A stretch of DNA of 63,803 nt, the filler included, from Collodictyon triciliatum (lineage: Eukaryota): assembly GCA_043381765.1 (NCBI GenBank). It is 8 parts of 8 records of this genome, joined end to end, with 100 filler letters (N's around TTAATTAATTAA, not from the genome) between each part and the next. Parts side by side here need not be neighbours in the genome. Positions count along the whole stretch, not along the records: positions 39,957 to 47,837 come from JBHJMP010003696.1; 7 more parts are not named here. One strand, 5' to 3'. The number at the start of each line of letters is the position of its first letter. The stretch's first letter is position 1. Of this stretch, positions 15,891 through 63,670 are shown piece after piece. The translations under genes and the position numbers were made by a program. The notes under the pieces were generated by a model. The model ran no database searches, was not told the origin of the DNA, and saw only the letters and a program-made list of their open reading frames with translations.

Positions 15891-15990
15891 NNNNNNNNNN
15901 NNNNNNNNNNNNNNNNNNNNNNNNNNNNNNNNNNTTAATTAATTAANNNNNNNNNNNNNNNNNNNNNNNNNNNNNNNNNNNNNNNNNNNN
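15891..15990. other. Artificial contig-joining linker
   Basis: N-run, TTAATTAATTAA, N-run. Confidence 0.98.
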
Positions 15991-23881: not shown

Positions 23882-23981
23882 NNNNNNNNNNNNNNNNNNN
23901 NNNNNNNNNNNNNNNNNNNNNNNNNTTAATTAATTAANNNNNNNNNNNNNNNNNNNNNNNNNNNNNNNNNNNNNNNNNNNN
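23882..23981. other. Artificial contig-joining linker
   Basis: N-run, TTAATTAATTAA, N-run. Confidence 0.98.
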
Positions 23982-31871: not shown

Positions 31872-31971
31872 NNNNNNNNNNNNNNNNNNNNNNNNNNNNN
31901 NNNNNNNNNNNNNNNTTAATTAATTAANNNNNNNNNNNNNNNNNNNNNNNNNNNNNNNNNNNNNNNNNNNN
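31872..31971. other. Artificial contig-joining linker
   Basis: N-run, TTAATTAATTAA, N-run. Confidence 0.98.
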
Positions 31972-32325: not shown

Positions 32326-32396
32326 GCGCTCGTGGTCTAGTGGTATGATGATCGTCTGCCACGCGGTCGACCCGGGTTCGATTCCCGGAGAGCGCA
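32326..32396 (+). tRNA. tRNA-Gly(GCC)
   Basis: GCGCTCG...AGAGCGCA acceptor (6/7 paired), D loop AGTGGT, anticodon loop CTGCCAC, T arm CCGGG-TTCGATT-CCCGG, downstream oligo-T. Confidence 0.9.
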
Positions 32397-39856: not shown

Positions 39857-39956
39857 NNNNNNNNNNNNNNNNNNNNNNNNNNNNNNNNNNNNNNNNNNNN
39901 TTAATTAATTAANNNNNNNNNNNNNNNNNNNNNNNNNNNNNNNNNNNNNNNNNNNN
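39857..39956. other. Artificial contig-joining linker
   Basis: N-run, TTAATTAATTAA, N-run. Confidence 0.98.
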
Positions 39957-40028
<72 letters not shown>

Positions 40029-40209
40029 CAAAACATAAAACAAGGAAGGAAAGCAGACAGGAAACAAAATCGAAATATAAAGAAAATAATAGAAGAGTCA
40101 AAGAGCCCCTTTTTTGTTTTGTTTTTTTTTTGTTTCTTGTTTTTATTTTATCTTATGTCATTATTATTTTTTTTTTACCGCGCACAGAGAGACAAGAGCC
40201 CGAGCCACG

Positions 40210-43200
40210 ATGGATCCGCTCTCCAAATACCCTGCGTGCCGCTCCTGGCCGGTGGTGGAGCTGCGCGAGGAGGACATCAGCCCAGGGCCGCGCTTCCCAG
40301 CGGAGGCGGCGCCACGCATCACGGCCGACGCGGCGCCACCAGAGATGCGGTCGGGATTGTTCCCGCCGGGCAGCAGCACGCTGGGGTCGTCCTACGCGGG
40401 GACGACGTACGGGGCGCCGGACGCAGCGGGGGCCACAGCCGTCTCCGCGTCGGACGCGGCGAGCACACGCAGCGAGCTCAACTACATCCACGTGGCGCGG
40501 ATGCAGCCGCAGGGGCACTGCGTGGGGCTGATCGGACTGCCGCAGGCGCAGGTGCAGCCGCAGAGCCGGATCCGACGGGCACAGGCGGAGGCACAGGCGG
40601 AGGCACAGGCGGAGGCACAGGCGGGCACGGGCACGGGCACGGGGCGGGCACAGGCGGGGCGGCTGCAGGCGGCGTCGTGCGGGGCGCTGGGCCCACTGGC
40701 GGCGCTGCGGCACGCGCATCTGGTGCGGCTGGTGGGGCTGCTGGGCACGCGCGAGTGCGAGTGGGCCGCGTTCCTGTGGCCGGACCAGCACGTGCCGGGG
40801 GCGTGCGTCTCCCTCGCGGCCCTGCTGGAGCCCGGGACGCCGCTGCCGCTGCCCGCCGTGCTGGCCTACGCGCGCCAGTTGGCCGCCACGCTGCACTACG
40901 TGGCCACCGTCCTGCCGCGCCACGCCTGCCTCATCCGCCCCGCCGACGTCCTCATCCACAACCACAGCCACAGCCATGACCATGCACGCGCCTACTGGAT
41001 CCCCTTCCGCACGCGCCTCCCCGATCTATGCACCACCGACCCGGAGCTGCTGCCCTACTGCGCCCCGGAGGCTGTGTGGCCGCAGGGCTCCGCCACATAC
41101 ACGCGCACCACGACCACACCCGCAGCCACAGCCACGGCCACTGCTGCGCAGCCACACGACCCCGCCGTCGACCCCGCCGCAGCCATCTCGATCTTCTCGT
41201 TCGGCGTGCTGCTGTGGGAGATGCTGACGGCACAGGCCCCCGCCCCGCCCATCGACCGCACCACGCACTTCATCACCCTCGACCGCGGCGCCCGCCTGCA
41301 CATCCCGGACGCCGTCCCCGACGCGTGGCGCAAGTGCATCCGCATGTGCTGGGCCCACAACCCGCGCGACCGCCCCACGTGGCTGCACCTCTGCACCTGG
41401 CTCCACACGAGGCACGACGCCCACTGGGCCGCCTCCGCCTCTGCCTCCGCCTCCGCCCTGTCCTCCTCGTCCACCGTCTACAGCGACTTTTCGTCCGTCG
41501 CCTCTTCCTCCGCGCCCTTCAGCCACAGCCACAGCCACGGCCACGGCCACAGCCACGGCCTCCCGCCCGTCCCGCCGCCCCCGCCCATCTTCGGCTTCGC
41601 CCCGGCCTCCGCGCCCGTCTTCGGCTCCTTCCCGATGCCCGCCCCGCCCCCGCCCGCCGACTGCTTCGTCCCCCACCCGGTCGGCCTCCCCGACTTCACC
41701 CCGCAGCCTGTTGCGCCGTACCCCGCCGCCCCGACCAGCCCCCTCCGCTCCCCCGACAGTGCCCCGCACGCCTTCCTCGCCCACCTCCCCTCCCCGCCAC
41801 ACTCCCTCTCGCACGCCCATTCCCAGCCACACTCCGGCATCGGTCTCGGCAGGTCTCTGCAAACCCCCACCGCCGCCACCGCCCACCATGACAGGCCCGA
41901 GCCCCGCTTCCCTAGCTTGAGTCTGTGCGATGTCGACGCAACCTGGGTAATTGGACGCTCAAAAGAGATAGATAGAGAGAGAGAAAAAAAAAGAACAGTT
42001 GTTGTGTTTACCCCTCTACCTATGTGTATGATATTTTATTGTTTTGTCTTTTTAATTTATATCTTTTCTTTTCTCTTTTATTTTTTTCTCTATCTCTATG
42101 TATATTAATATTATTTATGAGTAAAGGTCATGATGATCTCAAAGAGACCGTTGTTGCTTATTGAATTTGTAATTATTCATGCAGGAGGTGGAAGAGAAAA
42201 TCACTTTTCAGGCTGCAGATAACACCTACAAGAGCGGCAACATCACTACTGGTATCGACATGATGTCTCAATTGGCTATGGCAGGAAATCAGAAGGCAAT
42301 ATACTTTTTATCCTCCATCCACCAGAGCCATGAATCGCTCATGGATATCGGGCTCTACATGTTTGAATTACGAGAATACAGAGTTGCCTACGAGTACTTT
42401 AAACTCACCCTGGAAAAGTACCCCAATCACTACGGAGCTCACATCGCTCTCGGTTTACTCTATGCTGAATACCCCCGAGCAGCACCCATCACTCAACAGA
42501 CAGATGTCATGCTCTTGTGTCGCAAACAAGCCTTGGAGTCTCCAGTCGAATCAAAGCGTGATTCAATTTCCTTTTTTCGTAATCGTTGTGCTTCTCAGAT
42601 AAAGGCACCCACCACTTGTGGTGCTATATTCTTTACAATGCTAGCCACTTGTCGCCGTTTGCTGCTCTTCGCTCCTCCTCGCCCTAACCCTGGGTCCATC
42701 AAATCATCCAATACACAGTCGGAAAAGCCATCAACATCCTCTCCGCCATCCTCTTCATCATCAAAATCCCCTCCTTCCTCTGAACTTCCAAAATATCTCG
42801 ACGCTAACCCTGAAGAGGACTTGAAACTCTTGTGCGATGCCGTGGATCGAAGCCAAACAGTCGCTGAATATGAACTGGGTCTTGTTTATCAACATGTATT
42901 GCTTCCCAACGTCGATGTAAACTTGGAAACAGCCCTAAAGATGTACAAGCGTGCAGCTGACAAAGGTCACGTTGCAGCAATGTGCGCCATAGCCGATCTT
43001 CATGTTCTTGGTACAGTCAAATCAATTGGTCTCTCACAGGACATGACTATGGCCCTTGGACTCTACCAAAAGGCTGATTCTCTCGGCTCATCATACGCCG
43101 CTTATGCTCTGGGTTGGTGCTATCAATACGGAAAATGCGTCCATGCAGATATACCCACAGCAATTGTTTTTTATATGCGCTCAGCACAGGAAGGAAACAT

Positions 43201-44597
43201 CGATGCACAAACAGCTATTGGGTTGTGCTACTTACAAGGGTGCGGAGTCCCACAGAGTATCAACGATGCCCACTACTGGTTTCGCCTCGCTGCTCTACAA
43301 GAAGCTGCCCCCGCCTTATATCATCTTGGAATGAGTATATTAGAGTCGAAATCAAATCCAACTGACTTGACTCTTCAAGTACTCACTGGTGACACTACCG
43401 AGACTAATTCAGTGAAACAGGAACCCAGTTTACAAAAGGGCATAAGCTTGAGCTCAGTCACTGTTGAACCCTCGGCCAAACCAACCCTAACAAATAGATT
43501 CCAATCCGGCATTGATCTCAAGGCAGTCACCCAAAAAGGTAATTTTCACTTCTTTTTTTTTTTCTGTTCTTTTTCCTCTTGTGTTTTTTTTTATTTATTT
43601 ATTTTTTTACATTCATATTGCCACTCGATCTTTTTATGCAACACACGTTGTTAAAGAATATTCCGTGTTGTCGTGGTGATTAAAAGCTATTCATATATGT
43701 GTTTCAGGTTCAAGTGAGCAATCTATTGGTCCAACCACTCCAAGGATGGTTGAGAATCACCAAGATACTCCTCTCTACCAGCTGGCTTTTGGTTTGTTCA
43801 AGCTAGGGACTGAGAAGAACCACACTCGCTCTCGCTATCAAATGGCTTTGTGCCTCTTGAATGGTATGGGTACAAAACCGAATGTTGATGCTGCTGTGGA
43901 GCATTTGAAAATGTGTGGTGACCATGGGCTTACTGAAGCATTTGCAAAACTCGGTGACATTTATTTCCAAGGAACTTTTCTCACCAGAGACTACGGTACA
44001 GCCGCAAAGTGGTACCAAAAAGCATCAGACGCTGGTCATTCATATTCTCAGCGAATGACGGGGTACCTCCTTCAGGAAGGTCTCGGAGTTACTAAGGACC
44101 CTGGCGAGGCTATCATGCGCTATCTTCAGGCCGGAAATCAAAAGAGCTACCAAGTGAATCTGACAACGCAAGGACACCCTGAACCTGATAACCCTTCAAA
44201 AGGTGCTCCGGCCTCGCCAAGAAAAGCCATTCCCTCCGTTATCACATATGCCAAAGATGCAGAGTTCGCTCCGACAATCGACGTACGGACAGATTTGTGC
44301 CAATTTATCTTTGATAATGGCGACCGAGAGGCCCAATTCATTTTGGGGACTCGCTTTGCGACAGGCAAAGGTGTTTCGAAGGATATGGCACAAGCGTTTG
44401 ATTGGTATAAGCTTGCAGCCAACCAGGGACACGCAGAGGCCATGAGAAATGTTGCAGAATGCTTTGCCAAAGGCCTCGGCACGATGAAAAACCTTCGAAG
44501 TGCTGTGGCTTGGTACGGTAAAGCTGCTGACGCAGGTGACCTTGTAGCCCAGCAGAAACTCGACAGGGCTGGTTCCAGCAATTGCTCCTCCAGCTAA
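40210..44597 (+). CDS. TKL-like pseudokinase plus Pro-rich linker plus Sel1-like repeat protein (3 exons: 40210-41946, 42185-43538, 43708-44597)
   Basis: Kinase-fold motifs LRHAHLVRLVG, ARQLAATLHY, YCAPE, FSFGVLLWEMLT, CWAHNPRDRPT. Sel1 repeats AQTAIGLCYLQGCGVPQS and AQFILGTRFATGKGVSKDMAQAFDWYKLAANQG. Both introns are phase-compatible. Confidence 0.82.
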
Positions 44598-45673
44598 CCT
44601 CTCTTTTCTTTTCTCTTTTTTCATATCTGAGGTTTTCTCCCTTGTCACCACTCACCCCACCTCCACCCACTTGTCATGAGAATATCTTCCCTCCTGCTGC
44701 GGGGGTATGACAAGGAACACAACAAAGCGACACACCTATCCTAAAATTTTCCAGAGTTGGTTGTTTCTTTGTTTCTCTGTTTCTATGTCAGATCGTTCCA
44801 GCCCAGCCGGCGCCCAAATTCCAAATTTGTAAAATACTCGAATCCGGAAATAAAGGGAGGAAGCAAGCGATCAAAAAGGATGAGACCACCTACCAGCGCT
44901 GCCTCATGGATTGCCTACCGATCGTACGCAAACCGAGAAGGCTGGCGCAACCAACCCAGAGAGCAAAAAGGTCACTTTACCACATCCCTAACAGCAAAGG
45001 CTATGCGCCGAGACACACCGACGATCAAGAGACCAGCTGCCACCGACCCGTGAGTATAACAACTTAATAATAAGACGGAGTGAGCTCTTTGAAACGAATA
45101 ATAATGGGGGCAAAAAGACGGAATGAGCTGTTATGATGGAGCAAAGTAGAGACGAGGTAGTAGACTTTTGCACACAGGGCATGGGCACGCAACGTGCAAT
45201 AGGGACAATGCCGTGGCATGGACGACTTCGACGCTCCTAGCCTGCTATCAGTATGAGATCTCAAAACACACAATATTACAACCCATAGAACAATACAACA
45301 AATATCTTTCATTGTTTGGTATTAAGTTTAAGTGTAAAATGAAAAATCAAGTAAGGTCAAACATTCCCCTCGATGAAGTGGGTTAAAACAATTACGTAAA
45401 AAAAAGTCAATAAATTTTTTGTCATTTAAAATTATTGGGGTGCAATATAAACGGCTCTTATGATGATAATTGATGTTTTAAGAAGTTTGAATATCGAACG
45501 GCATATTAATATAGATAAAGAAAACTATATAGATCGATTTGACGGAGCAAGAAGATAAGCCAAAAAAAGTCATTTTATCGCGTCCAGTCAGCGCGAGCGA
45601 TGATGAAGTTTTCAAATATTTGGGTAAAAAAAAAAAGTTAAGAAAACCGGCTGTAAAATGAGGAGCGAGATGA

Positions 45674-45726
<53 letters not shown>

Positions 45727-45737
45727 GAAAAAAGAAG

Positions 45738-45768
<31 letters not shown>

Positions 45769-45809
45769 GACAGGGAGAGAAAAAGTGGTCTTGCAAAGGT
45801 TCAGAGGCA

Positions 45810-45990
45810 AAATGAGACTCTGGAGAAATGGAGGCAGAATAGCAAAGATGCGGGTTTCCGATAGACAAAGACAGCAAAGGGAGATACCCAGCAAATAGAT
45901 GAAAGGCTCAGTGCATAAGCGACTCGTGCAAGGAATCGAAGAGAACGAGAAACACCCGAAGAAAGGCTGAAAGGCCTCAAGTTCAAGCTA
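45810..45990 (+). mobile_element. Decayed STPR-type 23-aa repeat coding fragment (Helitron RepHel N-terminus-like)
   Basis: ETLE.., EIP..IDERL.. and ETPEERL units start at 45814, 45881 and 45949 (~69-nt period) with frameshifts and stops. Confidence 0.5.
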
Positions 45991-46090
45991 TCGACCCACG
46001 GGAAGCAAGATAATTATGATTATAGTGCTCAGTATTAGTTGCTCAAATTCAAAAATCAATAATAATCAAACCTCCCCCCCCCCCCCCCAA

Positions 46091-47104
46091 GAATGTGTTT
46101 GTATAGATAAACTTTCCGAAGAGCAGTTATCTTTATTAGCGACAAAAAAATAGTTGGAGTGGACGCAGGCAAGTTTAATTTTGTTTACATGGTGGACGAG
46201 ACAGGTAAGAAATTACGTTACGCGGCTCACCAAGGAAGACACGATACCAAATCTCGAAAAAATCACAAAATACTCGCGAGAAAAAAAGAAAAGTAGAGTA
46301 TAATTATTCAGGGATACGCATGGCAACACATTTACAAAGTGATGTTTCTTTTGGTTACATGACTTTTGAAGAGAATCAGCTGTTTGAAAGATTAAGAGTG
46401 TCTTTAATCGATTTAGGGACGTAACTGAGTAAACATAATTCATGCGCGGTCGATTATGAAAAATTTCCAAAATGTGTATCTATGAAATCAAGTTACCAGA
46501 TACAATTATCCAGATTTTATGAACAAGTGACTTTTCGAAAGATGAGATGGAGACAGTATGTTAATACAAAAAGAAGTGAAGAATTGTTTATGGACCGAAT
46601 CGAAAAGGCATTTGGCAAGGATGTTGTAGTGGCGTATGGAGACTGGAGCAGAAAATGTCAGATGAACCATTCTAAGCCAACCATCGGAAGAGGATTACGA
46701 AAAATACTATCCAAACGTTTTGAAACAGTTAGTGTAGAGGAATTTAGAACCTCCAAGATGTGCCACAACTGCGAAAAAGAACTGGAATTTTTGAAACTGA
46801 AAGGAAATTCAAAAAAAAAAAAAAAAAGGTGCATAGATGTCTCATATTTAAAGAATGCAATCGCTCAGAAAGCAAACAAAGTGTATCCTTGACAAGGGAC
46901 TTTATCAGCGCTAATAATATACTCAAGAAAGTTCTTTTAATCCTTCAAAATATGCCTAAACACCTTTCTCTAAAAAACAGGCTGTCGGGTCTTTCCTGGC
47001 AGCCTTCACCACTACACGATCTTTGTGAAAAAAGTGGTGAGGCCTTGGATACTAGCGCACCAGGTTTACCAACCGAAAGATTGGTATTCTTCCAGTATGA
47101 ATAA
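46091..47104 (+). pseudogene. Fanzor1 (TnpB-derived RuvC nuclease), C-terminal half, disrupted
   Basis: IDKLSEEQL..DKKIVGVDAGK (RuvC-I), KLRYAAHQ, NSCAVDYEKF, FRKMRWRQY, FGKDVVVAYGDWS, PTIGRGLRKIL, VEEFRTSKMCHNC, HRCLIFKEC, TRDFISANNI (RuvC-III). Disrupted by frameshifts, stops and a ~110-bp insertion. Confidence 0.85.
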
Positions 47105-47143
47105 ATAGAGATCCCCATAACACCCAAATGCCATTTAAATTTA
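46990..47143 (+). ncRNA. Candidate Fanzor omegaRNA scaffold / element right end
   Basis: Hairpins at 47002-47043 and 47067-47086 (GAAA tetraloop) directly 3' of RuvC-III; the position fits Fanzor/TnpB guide scaffolds. Boundaries are inferred. Confidence 0.5.
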
Positions 47144-47732
47144 GGCTCGACGAAGGAAAGTGGGTTGGAGCTCTATGAGTACCTTTTTTCTTTTCTTAAA
47201 TATGTATTATGCTTTCAGTTTATTCCATCATTCCTTGCCCTTAGTCAAGCGGCAAGGTTAAAGAATTGTTTGATAAAGCAGCGTTGGCCTGTAGAAAAAA
47301 ATATATCTCGAGATGTATAAAGCTGCACAAGTGCGGGGAAAGAGACAGACAAGCAGACACACATAAACAGCTAAAAGGCTAAAAGAGCGAAGAGGATGCC
47401 AGGAAAGCTGTTATTGCCGTGTCAGGGTTGTGCAGCCCACCCCGCGGTTTGTGAAGAGGACATCTGTGTGTATGTGTGCGTGCGTGCAGACTAGGGCAGA
47501 TTTGGGGGCTTTGGTGGGTCTGGAAGGTCAGGGACGTCAGGAATCTCCGGTAAGTCCGGGATGTCGTCTTTGCTTGGGATGGGAATCTGCCCCACGGGAA
47601 AATGTGTTAGAACGAAGAAAAAAGGAAGAAAAGGTCGTGTATGCTTCCTGAATGAACAAAAGTTTCAAGAGGGCAAGAGAATAAGGATGGCAGGGGCAAA
47701 AATAAGAGGGCCTGGTACTCAAGATTGCACTG

Positions 47733-47837
47733 GAAGGAAGAAGGAAAGGAAGAAGGAAAGGAAGAAGGAAAGGAAGAAGGAAAGGAAGAAGGAAAGGAAG
47801 AAGGAAAGGAAGAAGGAAAGGAAGAAAGAAAGAAAGA
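47733..47837. repeat. (GGAAGAAGGAAA)n at contig end
   Basis: Tandem 12-mer. Confidence 0.93.
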
Positions 47838-47937
47838 NNNNNNNNNNNNNNNNNNNNNNNNNNNNNNNNNNNNNNNNNNNNTTAATTAATTAANNNNNNN
47901 NNNNNNNNNNNNNNNNNNNNNNNNNNNNNNNNNNNNN
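47838..47937. other. Artificial contig-joining linker
   Basis: N-run, TTAATTAATTAA, N-run. Confidence 0.98.
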
Positions 47938-55822: not shown

Positions 55823-55922
55823 NNNNNNNNNNNNNNNNNNNNNNNNNNNNNNNNNNNNNNNNNNNNTTAATTAATTAANNNNNNNNNNNNNNNNNNNNNN
55901 NNNNNNNNNNNNNNNNNNNNNN
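55823..55922. other. Artificial contig-joining linker
   Basis: N-run, TTAATTAATTAA, N-run. Confidence 0.98.
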
Positions 55923-56480: not shown

Positions 56481-59400
56481 ATGAGACTGAACTCAAAGTC
56501 GTTTGCAGCTGTGTTGCTGTTGGGTGAGTTTTACTTTACTTGTTTTAATTTTATTGACTTCAAATTACATATAATTTTTATAATATATCTTTAGGATTGA
56601 TACTCCATTGCCAAAGATGTCTTGTTGAAGGGCAAGATGATTCGATTCGCACATTGACTGGTCATAATAATGATGTTAACGGTGTTGCGATTACTCGGGA
56701 TGGCATAAAAATTGTGTCTGGAAGTAGTGATAAAACAATCAAAATCTGGAATCTTTCTGATGGAGCCTTGATTCGCACATTGACTGGTCATACTAGTACT
56801 GTTACAAGTGTTGCTGTTACACATGATGGCTCGAACATTGTTTCTGGAAGTTATGATAATACAATCAAAATTTGGAGTCTTTCTGATGGAGCTTTGATTC
56901 GCACATTGAATGGTCATGCTATTATTGTTGAGAGTGTTGCTGTAACTCCGGATGGCTCAAAAATTGTTTCTGGAAGTTATGATAAAACAATCAAAATCTG
57001 GAATCTTTCTGATGGAGTTTTGATTCGCACATTGACTGGTCATACTGATTGGGTTATGAGTGTTGCTGTTACTCCTGACGGTTCAAAAATTGTTTCTGGA
57101 AGTGATGATAAAACAATCAAAATTTGGAATCTTTCTAATGGAGTTTTGATTCGCACATTGACTGGTCATACTGATTGGATTCGTAGTGCTGCTGTTACTC
57201 CGGATGGCTCAAAAATTGTTTCTGGAAGCTATAAAGAAATCAAAATTTGGAATCTTTCTGATGGAGCTTTGATTCGCACAATAACTGGTCATACTAGTTG
57301 GGTTTGGAATGTTGCTGTTACTCCTGATGGCTCAAAAATTGTGTCTGGAAGTGATGATAAAACAATCAAAATTTGGGGACTTTCTAATGGAGCTTTGATT
57401 CGCACATTAATTGGTCATACCTATTATGTTAATAGTGTAACTATCACTCCTGATAGCTCAAAAATTGTATCTGGAAGTGGTGATGGTACAATCAAAATCT
57501 GGGGACTTTGTGTCGCTGGTCAGTTTTATGATACCGTTTCAAAGTCTTGTCAATTATGCACATCTGGTAGCTATAGTGCTGCAGGAACGTCATCTTGTTC
57601 TTTATGCCCTTTCGGTACATACAACCCATCTATTGGTCAAGTAACTTGTCTTTTATGTGCAGCTGGTACATACAACCCATCAATTGGTTCTACAAGTATT
57701 GGTGCCTGTCTTTCATGTGCAGCTGGCACATACAATCCATTTACTGGTCAAGCTACCTGTATTTCATGTGCAGCTGGAACATACAATCCATCAACTGGCT
57801 CTACAAGCTCTGCTTCCTGCATTTTTTGCCAAGAAGGAAAATACAACAACAAAACTGGTCAGATATCATGCCCTAATTGCGAACCAGGAACATATAGTCC
57901 ATCAAAAGGACAGACTTCTTGTTTTGGCTGCCCATTAGGATTCTACAATCAAGAATCAGGAAAAACATTTTGCACACCATGCGGCCCAGGAACGTACTCG
58001 AATTCGACAAAAGGGAAATCTTGCGAAAAATGTCCAGCGGGGACTTTTAATCCTAATGTTGCATCTTCTAGCATAAGCAGTTGTCAACCGTGTCCACGAG
58101 GGAAATTTTCACCTAAATCAGGTGAATCAATATGCGAAATTTGTCAATCTGGTTCGTACAATCAATATCTAGGTCAGACTGGGTGCACTAATTGTACTGA
58201 TGGAACATATAATCCAAGATTTGGCTCAACAAGCAACAAATCATGTGTTGAGTGCCCGCAAGGAACCTATGGTAATGAGCAAAGAGATGAATGTTTATCA
58301 TGCCCAGCTGGTACATTCAACATTGAAACCGGCTCATTTAATCAATCATCGTGTATTTCATGTCCAAATGGAAGCTATAGCTCAGAAAGAAGCTCATCAT
58401 GCAGTTTATGCTTACCAGGATTCCATCAAAAAGATGGAATCACAAAAGACTCACAATCATGCTACGCTTGTCCGAAAGGCACATTCAACTCAAACTCCGG
58501 CTCATATGGAAACAAATCATGTACTGAATGTCCACAAGGTACTTGGAATGATAGAGATGGTCAAGCGTCATGCACATCATGTCCGGCTGGTACATTCAAC
58601 AATAAAACAGGCTCATATAATCAATCATCATGCATTTCATGTTTAAACGGAAGCTACAGCTCAGAAAGAAGCTCTTCATGCAGTTCGTGCTTATCAGGAT
58701 TCTACCAAAAAGAAGGAATCACAAAAGACTCACAATCATGCTACGCTTGTCCGAAAGGAACATTCAACTTGAACTCCGGCTCATATGGAGACAAATCATG
58801 CATTGAATGTCCGCAAGGTACTTGGAATGATAGAGATGGACAAACATCATGCGCATCGTGTCCAGCTGGTACATATAACAATAAAACTGGCTCATTCAAT
58901 CAGTCATCATGCATCTTATGTCCGAATGGAAGCTACAGCTCAGAAAGAAGCGCATCATGCAGCTTATGCTCACCAGGATTTTATCAAAAAGAAGTAATCT
59001 TAAAAGACTCAAGCTCATGCTATGCTTGTCCAAAAGGCACATTCAACTCAAACTCCGGCTCATATGGAAATAAATCATGCGTTGAATGCCCACAAAGTAG
59101 TTGGAATGATAGAGATGGTCAAGTATCATGCACATCGTGTCCAGCCGGTACATTCAATAATAAAACTGGCTCATTCAATCAATCATCATGCATTTCATGT
59201 CCAAATGGAAGCTACAGCTCAGCTGGAAGCTCATCATGCAGCTTATGCTCATCAGGATTCTATCAAAAGGAAGGAATCAATAAAGACTCACGCTCATGCT
59301 ACGCTTGTCCAGAAGGAACATTCAACTCAAACTCCGGCTCATATGGTAACTCATCATGTATTGAGTGTCCACAAGGTACTTGGAATGATAGAGATGGGCA

Positions 59401-62400
59401 AGCGGCATGCACATCATGTCCAGCTGGTACATACAACAATAAAATTGGCTCATTCAATCAATCATCATGCATTTCATGTCCAAATGGAAGTTACAGCTCA
59501 GCTGGAAGCTCGTCATGCAGTCTATGTTTATCAGGATTCTATCAAGAAGAAGGTATCATAAAAGACTCAAAATCATGCTATGCTTGTCCAAAAGGCACAT
59601 TCAACTCAAACTCCGGCTCATATGGTAACTCATCATGCATCAAATGCCCACAAGGTACTTGGAATTATAGAGATGGTCAAGCATCGTGCACATCGTGTCC
59701 AGCCGGTACATTCAACAATAAAACTGGCTCATTCAATCAATCATCATGTCTATCATGTACAAATGGGAGCTACAGCTCAGAGAGAAGCTCTTCATGTAGT
59801 CTATGTTTATCAGGATACTATCAAAATGAAGGAATCAATAAAGACTCAAGCTCATGCTATGCTTGTCCAAAAGGCACATTCAACTCAAACTCCGGCTCAT
59901 ATGGTAACTCATCATGTATTGAATGTCCACAAGGTAGTTGGAATGATAGAGATGGTCAAGTATCATGCACATCATGTCCAGCGGGTACATTCAATAATCA
60001 AACTGGCTCATTCAATCAATCATCATGTGTGTCATGTCCAAATGGAAGCTACAGCTCAGCTGGAAGCTCATCGTGCAGTTTATGCTCATCAGGATTCTAT
60101 CAAAAAGAATACATCACAAAAAACTCCAAATCATGCTATGCTTGTCCAGAAGGCACATTCAATTCAAACTCTGGCTCAAATGGAAACAAATCATGTACTG
60201 AATGTCCACAAGGTAGTTGGAATGATAGAGATGGTCAAGTATCATGCACATCATGTCCAGCTGGTACATTCAACAATAAAACCGGCACAGTCAACGAGTC
60301 ATCATGCATCTTATGTCCAAATGGAAGCTACAGCTCAGCTGGAAGCGCATCATGCAGCTTATGTTTATCAGGATTCTATCAGCAAGAAAATATCATAAAA
60401 GACTCAAAATCATGCTATGCTTGTCCAAAAGGTACATTCAACTCAAACTCTGGCTTATATGGTAACAAATCATGTATACAATGTTCACAAGGTACTTGGA
60501 ATGATAGAGAGGGTCAGGCATCATGCATATCATGTCCAGCGGGTACATTCAATAATCAAACGGGCTCATTCAATGAGTTATCGTGCATATCATGTCCAGA
60601 TGGGAGCTATAGCTCAGAGAGAAGCGCATCATGCAACTCATGCTCATCAGGATTCTATCAAAAAGAAGAAATGATGAAAGACTCAGAATCATGCTATGCT
60701 TGTCCAAAAGGCACATTCAACTCAAACTCTGGCTCATATGGAAACAAATCATGCATTGAATGTCCACAAGGTACTTGGAATGACAGAGATGGTCAGGCAT
60801 CATGTACATCCTGTCCAACTGGTACATTCAACAATCAAACTGGTTCATTCAATCAATCATCATGTCTATCATGTACAAATGGAAGCTACAGCTCAGAGAG
60901 AAGTGCATCATGCAGTCTATGTTTATCAGGATTCTATCAGCAAGAAAATATCATAAAAGACTCAAAATCATCCTACGCTTGTCCAAAAGGCTCATTCAAC
61001 ACAAACTCTGGCTCATATGGAAATAAATCATGTATTGAATGTCCACAAGGCACTTGGAATGATAGAGATGGTCAAGCGTCATGCACATCGTGTCCAGCCG
61101 GTACATTCAATAATAAAACTGGCTCATTCAATCAATCATCATGCATTTCATGTCCAAACGGAAGCTACAGCTCAGAAAGAAGCGCATCATGTTTTTCATG
61201 CTCATCTGGATTCTATCAAAAAGAGGGAGTAATAAAAGACTCAAAATCATGTTATGCTTGTCCAAAAGGCACATTCAACTCAAACTCCGGCTCATATGGG
61301 AACTCATCATGTATTGAATGTCCGCAAGGTACTTGGAATGATAGAGATGGTCAAGCATCATGCTCATCATGTCCAGCTAGTACATTCAACAATAAAACTG
61401 GCTCATTCAATCAATCATCATGTGTTTCATGTCCAAATGGAAGCTACAGCTCAGCTGGAAGCTCATCATGCACATCATGTTCACCAGGATTCTATCAAAA
61501 AGATGAAATCTTAAAAGACTCAAGCTCATGCTATGCTTGTTCAAAAGGCACATTCAACTCAAACTCCGGCTCATATGGTAACTCATCATGTACTGAATGT
61601 CCACAAGGTACTTGGAATGATAGAAATGGTCAAGCATCATGCACATCATGTCCAGCTGGTACATTTAACAATAAAACTGGCTCATTCAATCAATCATCAT
61701 GTGTTTCATGTTCAAATGGAAGCTACAGCTCAGAAAGAAGTGCATCATGCAACTTATGTCCCACACGCTCAACGACAACCTTAAAAGGTTCTAAATCAAT
61801 CGATCAGTGCAAATGTATATATTCCTATATATCATTCAATGGTGCTTGCACATGCCCTCCGGGACAGTTCGAAGATGGTAATAAATGTGTTCCGTGCAGA
61901 ATAGGTTCATACAAACCAACAAATGGCACGAATTTCTGCCTATCCTGTGACGATAAATTTACAACAAAAAATAATGGCTCGATGAATTCAACCGATTGTA
62001 TCTGTAGTACTGGATTTGAACACAGAAACTCCAATTGCGAATGCAAACCTGGATGGTATGAAAAGCAGAAGAACTGCTATGAATGCCCAGCAAGCGCTTA
62101 CAATGGAAACTTTGGACAAAGCTTTTGCGAAAAATGCCCAATAAACTCATACACAAATATGACTGCATCAACCTCAATATCAGATTGCAAATGTCTTCCA
62201 TTTACATATTTCGACTCAAAGACCGAGCAGTGTAAGTCTTGCCCAACAGGATTTATTTGTGATGGAACCAGTCAACCGAGTGTTGCACCTGGATATTGGA
62301 AAGCGCCTACATCAAATGGAGAATACATTTCTTACAAATGTCTTAATGAAGATGCTTGCAACGGAGGTAATAACACCTGCGCTGAAGGATATACTGGGGC

Positions 62401-63670
62401 TTTATGCAGTATTTGTGAAAAGGGTTTTGGTAAAACAGGTGTTTATTGCACTAAATGCCCCAACCAAAGAACGAGTGGATTTTTAGTATTCCTAAGTATT
62501 GCAGTACCTTTATTGTTTGTTCTGTTCATGATAGAGCAATCGAGACAACCAAAGACGGCAAAAATACAGATTCTAAAAACTCTTTCATCGCATTTCCAAG
62601 TTTTGTCATATCTGGCGAACTTTGATGTGAACTGGAGCTCCACTATTATTTCAATAATGAAAATACCAGCCTCCTTTTCATTTTCTTTATCTATAGACAC
62701 GTATCCTATTGAATGTAGATTTGAAATGACAATTTACGATAAGGTTCTGTATTCGATGATGACCCCTCTTATGTTAATAGGACTAGTTCTTTTTATAGTT
62801 ACAGCCAAGATTGTATGGAAACTAAGAAACCATCAAATTAATAGCAGGGATGTTACTTTCTTCAAAATTAACCAAGAGTTTATATTTTCCATGCTGGTCA
62901 TGCTATTTTTTGTTCATCCTACGATTATGTCGTCAATATCAAACATCTTCCGTTGCGAGAGGTTTGGTGATGAAAGATACTTGAAGGCTGACATGTCCAT
63001 AATGTGCGATGATGCAAATTATATGGCTTGGAAAAACATATCTCTTGTTTATGTGATTCTGTATTGTATTGGTGGCCCGTTTATTCTCGCGGCATACATG
63101 TTATATAAAAGGTCATCACTGATTGATCCAGCATCAAGCACTTACAACTTACTCCGATTTTTGGTTGATGGATACAAGGAAGAATGCTTTTACTGGGAAA
63201 TCGTGACTATGATGCAAAAACTGCTTGTCGTTTTGATAAGCATTTTCTTTTCTTCAGCCTTACAAATTTACTTTGGATTGTGGTTACTTTTAATGACGAT
63301 TGCATCATCTCTGTATTTCAAGCCATTCATGTCCAACGTGCTCAGGAAGTCACAACTTTACTCAATATCGGTCCTTTACTTTACCTTGATGACAAGCCTT
63401 CTCTTCAGATATACAGAACTTAGTATATTGTCGGAATATTTTCTTGTGGCACTGGTTGTTTTGTTGAACTTTATGATTGCAGCTGTCTCTTTAATGAAAG
63501 CTGGGCCTGCTCTGCTCGTGTCTTTCTTGATTAAAATAGAAAGATTTGTAGAGCCAATTTATGAATACATGATGGAATCATCCGTCATCACTTACATGAA
63601 AAACAAATTGGCAATAAACAAAAAAGATATCGAAATGACAGATTTCAATGATGCTGCCACATCTCTTTAA
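56481..63670 (+). CDS. Large surface protein: signal peptide, 7 WD40 repeats, Cys-rich GCC2_GCC3/TNFR-like repeats, EGF-like module, ~9 TM helices (CRMP-like)
   Basis: Exon 1 (56481-56523) plus exon 2 (56595-63670) give MRLNSKSFAAVLLLGLILHCQRCLVEG, then GH...IVSGS.DKTIKIW x7, CPAGTFN/CPQGTW repeats, CAEGYTGALCSICEKGF, and a hydrophobic C-terminus with FYWEIV. Confidence 0.9.
56644..57505 (+). repeat. Seven near-identical 126-bp WD40-coding repeats
   Basis: ATTCGCACATTGACTGGTCAT recurs every 126 nt; the fifth unit is one codon short. Confidence 0.93.
58290..61770 (+). repeat. ~12.5 tandem 279-bp (93-aa) Cys-rich coding repeats
   Basis: TGGAATGATAGAGATGG (WNDRDG) and CPAGTFNNKTGSFNQSSC recur every 279 nt. 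Confidence 0.95.

Follow-up and report, generated by a model that had tools for sequence, protein, structure and literature searches.

At positions 46103-47028 (plus strand) of the window, by which is meant the whole analysed stretch of 63,803 nucleotides from Collodictyon triciliatum (assembly GCA_043381765.1), lies what is very probably a pseudogene fragment in which about 45% of a Fanzor1 gene is left, namely its C-terminal end with the RuvC and zinc-finger regions. Fanzor1 proteins, known from many eukaryotes and giant viruses, are the eukaryotic relatives of bacterial TnpB and are carried by transposons; when intact, they bind a guide RNA derived from the 3' end of their element and cut the matching DNA. 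The first-pass annotation had described a decayed Fanzor1 nuclease gene at 46091-47104, and matches to solved Fanzor1 proteins and to a family profile agree with it. The locus was right; the homologous reading, however, stops at a TGA at 47026-47028 and not at 47104. All the peptides quoted there are present in the translations, in the frames that were implied: a frame 2 peptide ending in IDKLSEEQLSLLATKK, then DKKIVGVDAGK...KLRYAAHQ in frame 1, SKHNSCAVDYEKF, FYEQVTFRKMRWRQY, FGKDVVVAYGDWS, KPTIGRGLRKIL and VEEFRTSKMCHNC in frame 3, and HRCLIFKEC and TRDFISANNI in frame 2 again.

How is the fragment arranged? A frame-aware alignment puts residues 344 to about 642 of P0001, an intact metagenome protein of 648 aa, on 46103-47025, and 188 of 297 residues are identical (63%). 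The first homologous piece, found by tblastn and by this alignment, is in frame 2 (46103-46150, P0001 residues 344-359) and ends in an A7 run. It overlaps the RuvC-I piece in frame 1 (46138-46293, residues 356-407), which a family profile matches at E 5e-17. An A-rich run at 46281-46298 holds the second frameshift and a TAG stop at 46294-46296, seen both in the translation and in the frame-aware alignment. The main piece then follows in frame 3 (46299-46826, residues 408-580), with an in-frame TAA, the Gly of a YGDWS motif, the RuvC-II Glu and the first zinc knuckle. It runs into an A17 homopolymer (46811-46827) with the third frameshift, where P0001 has only two Lys codons, and reads appear cut at 46799-46835 in the layout of related contigs around this run. 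The second zinc knuckle, F-K-E-C, and the RuvC-III Asp are in a further frame 2 piece (46829-46957, residues 581-620). After a fourth frameshift near 46958 there is a C-terminal tail in frame 1 (46958-47028, residues 624-642), which has KKQAVG in common with P0001; several indels are found among related contigs at 46924-46971. A 24-residue insertion at 46305-46376 (P0001 residues 410-433) is seen only in the window copy and P0001 and is a gap in the other 11 aligned relatives; close kinship of the two is therefore supported.

The assignment to Fanzor1 can be made at several levels. The 155-aa frame piece at 46425-46889 matches the solved Fanzor1 proteins of Parasitella parasitica (E 1.7e-12), Spizellomyces punctatus (1.3e-06) and Guillardia theta (1.7e-05), whose structures are PDB 9cf0, 8gkh and 9cer, respectively. 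The same piece is 66% identical to P0001, which came from a word-indexed search for longer proteins, and P0001 aligns over its whole length to the three solved proteins (E 2.1e-28 for Guillardia, 2.7e-24 for Parasitella and 3.7e-23 for Spizellomyces). General models respond weakly and below their cut-offs: the Pfam Cas12f1-like TNB domain on the relic at E 0.0061, and the NCBIfam TnpB model on the RuvC-I piece at E 7.6e-04. A family profile of 630 positions, built from 12 full-length relatives (alignment A1), was searched against the window in six-frame translation (2,468 pieces in all) and matches the three pieces of the relic (E 3.8e-54, 5e-17 and 1.3e-12) and nothing else, the next-best piece having E 1; a Fanzor RuvC match, on which the first-pass annotation had staked its reading, is thus present. 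When the profile was compared with PDB, the three Fanzor1 chains came on top (E 3e-78 to 5e-64), followed by LaTranC at E 0.046, and no Fanzor2, TnpB or Cas12 chain appeared at E <= 10. Because Fanzor1 chains rank first and the others do not appear, the family is assigned to Fanzor1, and the same ranking rules out a closer kinship to Fanzor2 or TnpB.

The three acidic codons of the RuvC domain are where they had been placed, at 46162-46164 (GAC), 46740-46742 (GAA) and 46898-46900 (Asp). The RuvC-I Asp aligns with D364 of P0001, the alternative RuvC-II Glu with E555, and the RuvC-III R-D (46895-46900) with R603-D604; each is invariant in all 12 relatives. The Glu stands in E-F-R-T-S-K-M-C-H-N-C, six residues ahead of the first CxxC (C-H-N-C, 46761-46772), an arrangement described for Fanzors in the available text of PMC10711439. 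The solved Fanzor1 proteins have the same RuvC and zinc-finger core, with D-E-F-R-T-S, D-E-Y-K-T-S or P-E-H-Y-T-S around the Glu six residues before the CxxC, to be compared with E-F-R-T-S-K-M-C in the relic. The Gly of YGDWS (46638-46640) falls in the same column as the Gly of their G-N-W-S, G-D-W-S and G-N-W-G, and Gly or Pro at the canonical RuvC-II Glu position is described by Jiang et al. in the accessible part of PMC10530073. This combination of a Gly and a moved Glu had been taken as a Fanzor1 signature. The moved Glu is indeed seen here, and the Gly may correspond to the canonical position; according to the same portions of the two papers, however, the arrangement is general to Fanzors and a subset of TnpB (PMC10530073, PMC10711439). 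Bacterial TnpB and viral Fanzor2 follow the same RuvC D-E-D logic with a zinc finger, and the repositioned Glu is common to the relic, Fanzor2 and the TnpB subset in what these papers' available sections report (PMC10530073, PMC10711439).

Other positions have changed. RuvC-I reads D-A-G in the relic (46162-46170, with the Ala codon at 46165-46167), in contrast to D-P-G in 12 of 12 relatives; this change of Pro365 to Ala thus affects an invariant column, and the D-P-G motif is near-exclusive to Fanzors as far as the text at hand of PMC10711439 goes. The first pair of the zinc finger, C-H-N-C, is intact, and the second is F-K-E-C (Phe 46847-46849, Cys 46856-46858), the Phe replacing Cys587, a residue conserved in 11 of 12 relatives. 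Note that the retained acidic residues are not an argument for function here: with 63% identity, any three given positions would be kept by chance in about one copy in four, so the intact triad is unremarkable.

Four frameshifts and two stop codons interrupt the reading. The first frameshift is in the A7 run (46144-46150), the second in the A-rich run at 46281-46293 adjoining the TAG, and the third in the A17 run; the in-frame TAA is at 46422-46424, and the fourth frameshift lies outside long homopolymers. The frame-aware alignment to P0001 reproduces the lesions of the first-pass annotation, namely the frameshifts, both stops, the Cys-to-Phe change and the lack of an N-terminal half. Its frameshifts are all present, but the list was one short, the one near 46958 being left out. 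A ciliate-type code behind the TAA and TAG was considered and ruled out, for a 2,370-codon frame elsewhere in the window is open under the standard code and related copies have GAA at 46422. With the front half, the frames, one zinc ligand and the Pro of D-P-G lost, the copy, judged by its sequence, cannot function as a nuclease. It also has a longer end branch in the tree of relatives (0.54, versus 0.15 for P0001).

The missing half is not found nearby. Residues 1-343 of P0001 have no tblastn match anywhere in the window, and profile positions 1-361 have none at E < 1 among the 2,468 six-frame pieces. Absent from the relic are therefore the N-terminal 57% or so, with the guide- and target-binding domains. 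The truncation is not an effect of a contig end, because the contig starts at 39957, 6 kb upstream. An intron acceptor at the C13 run just 5' of the fragment was also considered, and the profile search found no upstream exon for it.

Do other copies share these lesions? Related sequence was sought in sequence runs, of which 11 were listed, the best one containing 0.09 of the words sampled from 45900-47400; the contigs of the four best runs (X1-X4) were aligned to 45900-47400 at 80% likeness. X1 and X3 are two coded organisms of one study, their material being guessed to be RNA; X2 is a freshwater metatranscriptome and X4 a lake metagenome. Position 46422 is G (GAA) in 16/16 contigs of X1, 9/9 of X3 and 1/1 of X4. 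Position 46848 is G (TGT, Cys) at a depth of 310 out of 316 in X1, 206 out of 226 in X3 and 2 out of 2 in X4. Since all 26 contigs read GAA and nearly all the depth gives Cys, both lesions belong to this copy alone. The first frameshift (the A7 run, about 46143) presents a different picture, as an extra A occurs in a minority only (depth 36 of 174 in X1 and 30 of 161 in X3), and most of the related depth has the A count of the window.

The contigs also show how common the family is. Over 45900-47072, 163 contigs of X1 and 181 of X3 are related to the window at 80-99% likeness, numbers that cannot be read as counts of genomic copies. By bands of likeness (>=99%, 95-99%, 90-95% and <90%) they divide into 9, 27, 68 and 59 in X1 and 10, 55, 61 and 55 in X3. 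Since so many are found in each of two coded organisms, the Fanzor1 family is a dispersed, multi-copy repeat. Its unit has recognisable edges. On the left, an AT-rich stretch ending in the C13 run (46042-46090, plus strand) lies directly 5' of the Fanzor homology and is the probable boundary. Copies of the sequence further upstream part ways after 46041, where X1 and X3 show loose ends; three X4 contigs enter the Fanzor part at 46086-46096, and their letters upstream of it resemble 46042-46090; and the depth of related contigs dips at 46053-46103, around the C13 run. The right boundary is at 47072-47123 (plus strand), with an AATAAA at 47100-47105, where summed depth drops from 95 (X1) and 43 (X3) at 47022-47072 to 7.6 and 3.2 at 47073-47123 and to 0 at 47124-47225. 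The stretch 45900-46041 likewise occurs in multiple copies in X1 and X3 (summed depth 28-159), its copies continuing differently after 46041, and it is probably a separate repeat that abuts the Fanzor unit.

Taken together, the relic is an ordinary member of an already known family, 5'-truncated, frame-broken and mutated, and there is published precedent for such host fragments. As a scenario, the family would have arrived or spread as a passenger of a DNA transposon, possibly exchanged with giant viruses, and this copy would have drifted without selection afterwards. Some points weigh against so simple a history. Point substitutions alone do not prove decay: of the 28 invariant columns within the relic it retains 23 and changes five, a number within the range of 0 to 6 that a leave-one-out count gives for intact relatives. 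Frame damage may be less severe than it looks, because three of the four frameshifts are in A-runs, where assemblies can err. That X1 and X3 belong to the same host lineage as the window is only presumed, from the 9 and 10 contigs at >=99% likeness. Finally, the truncated form may have been copied as such and not have arisen by a private deletion, which is possible because the left boundary is common to at least three contigs of the lake metagenome.

The last point leads to the best surviving alternative, in which the truncated unit is a non-autonomous deletion derivative, made of a left end, the back half of the gene and a right end, that is copied and mobilised in trans by full-length elements. 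This is possible, though rather doubtful. The minority of the extra A at 46143, together with the junction in the three lake contigs, suggests that the truncated and already frame-broken form has itself been copied: the three X4 contigs have the same junction just 5' of 46091, and most related depth agrees with the window in its A count. The sharp right edge at about 47072-47123 fits a bounded unit, and degraded and partial forms of Fanzor elements are described from Chlamydomonas in the available portion of 10.1101/2024.09.03.611062. However, only short, weak pairs of terminal inverted repeats and no target-site duplication were found at the relic, and the window has no trace of a transposase. 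The genomic copies of this exact form, moreover, are not countable from contigs, and the dip in depth at 46053-46103 may mean that the junction is absent from most copies.

What are the relatives of the fragment in a wider sense? Among 1.84 billion cluster representatives, 1,888 relatives were found at E <= 0.001 and 696 at E <= 1e-10, mostly of 600-700 aa. Relatives are encoded in 552 of 599 pattern-matched stretches of JGI metagenome contigs and in 412 of 597 of a viral collection, many of the latter on contigs named as giant-virus metagenome-assembled genomes (GVMAG). The likeness to giant-virus Fanzor1 proteins, stated in the first-pass annotation, is thereby substantiated. When P0001 alone was searched against viral contigs, none of 36 pattern matches was confirmed. 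The best 80 stretches of each collection were kept as loci L001-L160; the collections overlap in part, so that the 160 loci give 133 distinct proteins, and a GVMAG contig of 254,533 nt is present in both. These giant-virus loci belong to the same family, their proteins being 37-47% identical to P0001 from end to end. Among full-length relatives P0007 comes second in closeness, after P0001; it is 99.8% identical to the open reading frame (ORF) of L003 and 88% identical to an ORF on the 254,533-nt contig; the window piece is 52% identical to these proteins. The closest relatives, P0001 and P0005, are unlabelled and come from contigs of 0.8-2.6 kb. Four long contigs that bear relatives have 26-33% GC and are about 80-87% coding, with Hsp70, topoisomerase IA and SNF2 helicase as neighbours, and it is on these neighbours and on the GVMAG names that the assignment to viruses rests.

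The relatives were reduced to 140 by clustering at 75%, and a tree was built by a quick method from 62 rows and 151 columns, the rows being the window piece and 61 relatives (11 chosen ones and the next 50). The window piece, P0001 and P0005 form a clade with a Shimodaira-Hasegawa-like approximate likelihood ratio (SH-aLRT) support of 97. This clade falls in a 29-row group (support 93, not starred) that holds all five virus-labelled rows, the deeper order being unsettled.

The viral loci give an idea of what a complete element may look like. In four of them that were tested, a protein of about 340 aa with DDE_3 and helix-turn-helix domains lies just upstream on the other strand in L001, L002 and L036, and L012 is without it. 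Among the 121 loci with at least 1,500 nt upstream, a DDE_3-type transposase gene occurs in 46 at a distance of up to 3 kb on that side, and in 44 of these its orientation is opposite to that of the Fanzor gene. This transposase is of a predicted IS630/Tc1-mariner type, which agrees with the Chlamydomonas viral elements, where Fanzor1 is paired with a Tc1/mariner-type transposase in full-length copies and partial and degraded forms are common (10.1101/2024.09.03.611062, in its available portion). At the other end, a conserved 3' motif is found in 120 of the 146 viral-clade loci with enough downstream sequence, mostly starting 45-54 nt past the stop. It is near-invariant and closes a block of about 150 nt with a sharp end, which spans the stop codon, beginning some 60 nt ahead of it and ending some 100 nt past it. 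For 82 non-redundant 3' elements RNAalifold predicts 9 pairs, 8 of them with compensatory changes. The 3' element of the viral clade is thus a candidate for both the guide-RNA scaffold and the right end.

The relic differs from the giant-virus loci in that neither a transposase nor this 3' element is detectable. Three viral DDE_3 transposases searched against the window by tblastn gave a best E of 0.19, with nothing near the relic. A covariance model of the viral 3' element has no match at 46950-47120 (plus strand) at E <= 10; its best match in the window (E 0.29) is on another contig. A likeness of the relic's tail to the viral element had been noticed by eye and is unsupported by this model. 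No Rfam family is found at 44600-47837 at E <= 1. The tail does have a structure of its own: two strong hairpins overlap the end of the reading frame (46979-47040, plus strand), and the 136-nt tail folds better than its shuffles (z = -3.09; 3 of 200 shuffles equal it). The hairpins are only a lead for a possible guide-RNA-like structure.

If all these threads are joined, a larger scenario can be drawn: a high-copy Fanzor1 family still propagates in a freshwater eukaryote host after an exchange with giant viruses, its intact copies of about 650 aa (like P0001) cut DNA under RNA guidance, using a scaffold that differs from the one of the viral clade, and the truncated back-half unit is itself moved around as a non-autonomous element. 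As a whole this is unlikely.

Could the fragment derive from an endogenous viral element, left by a giant virus that had integrated, and not from a host transposon? Its nearest labelled relatives are on GVMAG contigs, including the 254-kb one with the 52% identical protein, and its clade shares the 29-row group with all virus-labelled rows. The setting argues otherwise, and we consider this origin very unlikely. Note that the window is a joining of separate contigs, so the true physical context of the relic is 39957-47837 only (JBHJMP010003696.1). A spliced kinase/Sel1-repeat gene lies on this contig 1.5 kb upstream of the relic; a GT...AG intron (41947-42184) links a kinase-like exon in frame to the Sel1 exons, which end at 44597. 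Because of this spliced gene the relic is placed in eukaryotic nuclear DNA. The eight ORFs that flank the relic, in the 1.5-kb gap to the upstream gene and downstream, have no Pfam match, viral or other, at E < 0.05. Besides, the relic belongs to a dispersed repeat of about 1 kb with more than 100 related contigs in each of two organisms, and its closest relatives P0001 and P0005 carry no virus label. The weakest explanation is that of a functional gene, with the frame breaks as homopolymer errors and the N-terminal half in an upstream exon joined at an acceptor at 46078-46093, and it deserves hardly any credence: three frameshifts are indeed in A-runs, C13 followed by AAG resembles a splice acceptor and all three acidic residues are present, but the N-terminal 361 profile positions are unmatched in the 6 kb upstream as in the whole window, substitutions and not homopolymer errors gave rise to the TAA at 46422 and the Phe at 46847, both of them absent from related copies, and the frameshift near 46958 is outside any long homopolymer.

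The preferred reading, a decayed fragment of a multi-copy Fanzor1 family, has a close parallel in Chlamydomonas reinhardtii, where a Fanzor1 fragment on host chromosome 17 has relatives in an endogenous giant virus, as the accessible text of 10.1101/2024.09.03.611062 describes. That host fragment is 80% identical in nucleotides to the viral copy (same source and portion), whereas the nearest virus-labelled protein of the relic is 52% identical. Compared with the solved Fanzor1 proteins, the relic is the last 45% or so only, frame-broken, and without a zinc ligand and the Pro of D-P-G. Then why does it matter? By itself it matters little, being inactive, and many decayed copies are already catalogued; the available part of PMC10530073 lists thousands of Fanzor genes in 3,655 clusters. 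It serves as a marker that its host has had a multi-copy Fanzor1 family whose nearest labelled kin are in giant viruses. Intact copies in this genome that might serve as a new nuclease, as the first-pass annotation supposed, have indirect support from the many related contigs of X1 and X3 and from the intact 648-aa relative in metagenomes. The intact P0001 is a candidate for ordinary functional testing. The giant-virus clade, with its bounded 3' element as a candidate guide scaffold and its frequent transposase neighbour, may prove more useful than the relic.

Some features of the surrounding DNA should be recorded. The window consists of eight contigs of 7,881-7,896 nt, nearly sorted by length and joined by N44-TTAATTAATTAA-N44 linkers at 7895-7994, 15891-15990, 23882-23981, 31872-31971, 39857-39956, 47838-47937 and 55823-55922; simple repeats adjoin six of the seven contig junctions. 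A feature that runs across a linker is therefore physically meaningless. Homopolymers and microsatellites are plentiful across the assembly. On the contig of the relic there are A tracts at 39957-40024 (about 68 nt, within which the contig begins) and at 45680-45768 (about 89 nt, with a few G). The kinase-like first exon (40211-41946) has 68% GC, compared with 31-43% elsewhere in the assembly, and contains low-complexity stretches rich in Ala, Pro and His-Ser; the one recognisable part of a kinase domain in it is the C-terminal one. Named proteins are at most 34% identical to the product of the Sel1 exons.

Just 3' of the relic, contigs of X2 (47251-47400) and X4 (47284-47393) match the window with zero differences. 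The X2 contig is the sole metatranscriptome contig aligned, and it covers 47251-47400 only, outside the relic, for which it thus gives no sign of transcription. No ORF with a Pfam match is found in 47251-47400, which may be a transcribed host region, with a freshwater habitat hinted at.

Elsewhere in the window, the intronless frame of 2,370 codons at 56558-63670 encodes a protein with a WD40 propeller at the N-terminus and 32 Ephrin-receptor-like repeats behind it. Its closest match in architecture is P0281, an unnamed protein of 2,369 aa, and its WD40 end matches proteins of fungi, bacteria, archaea, Stentor and Reticulomyxa alike. Ten further ORFs of the window have one weak Pfam match among them. 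Two tRNA genes, at 2524-2595 and 32326-32396, are the sole Rfam matches at the gathering score in the whole window.

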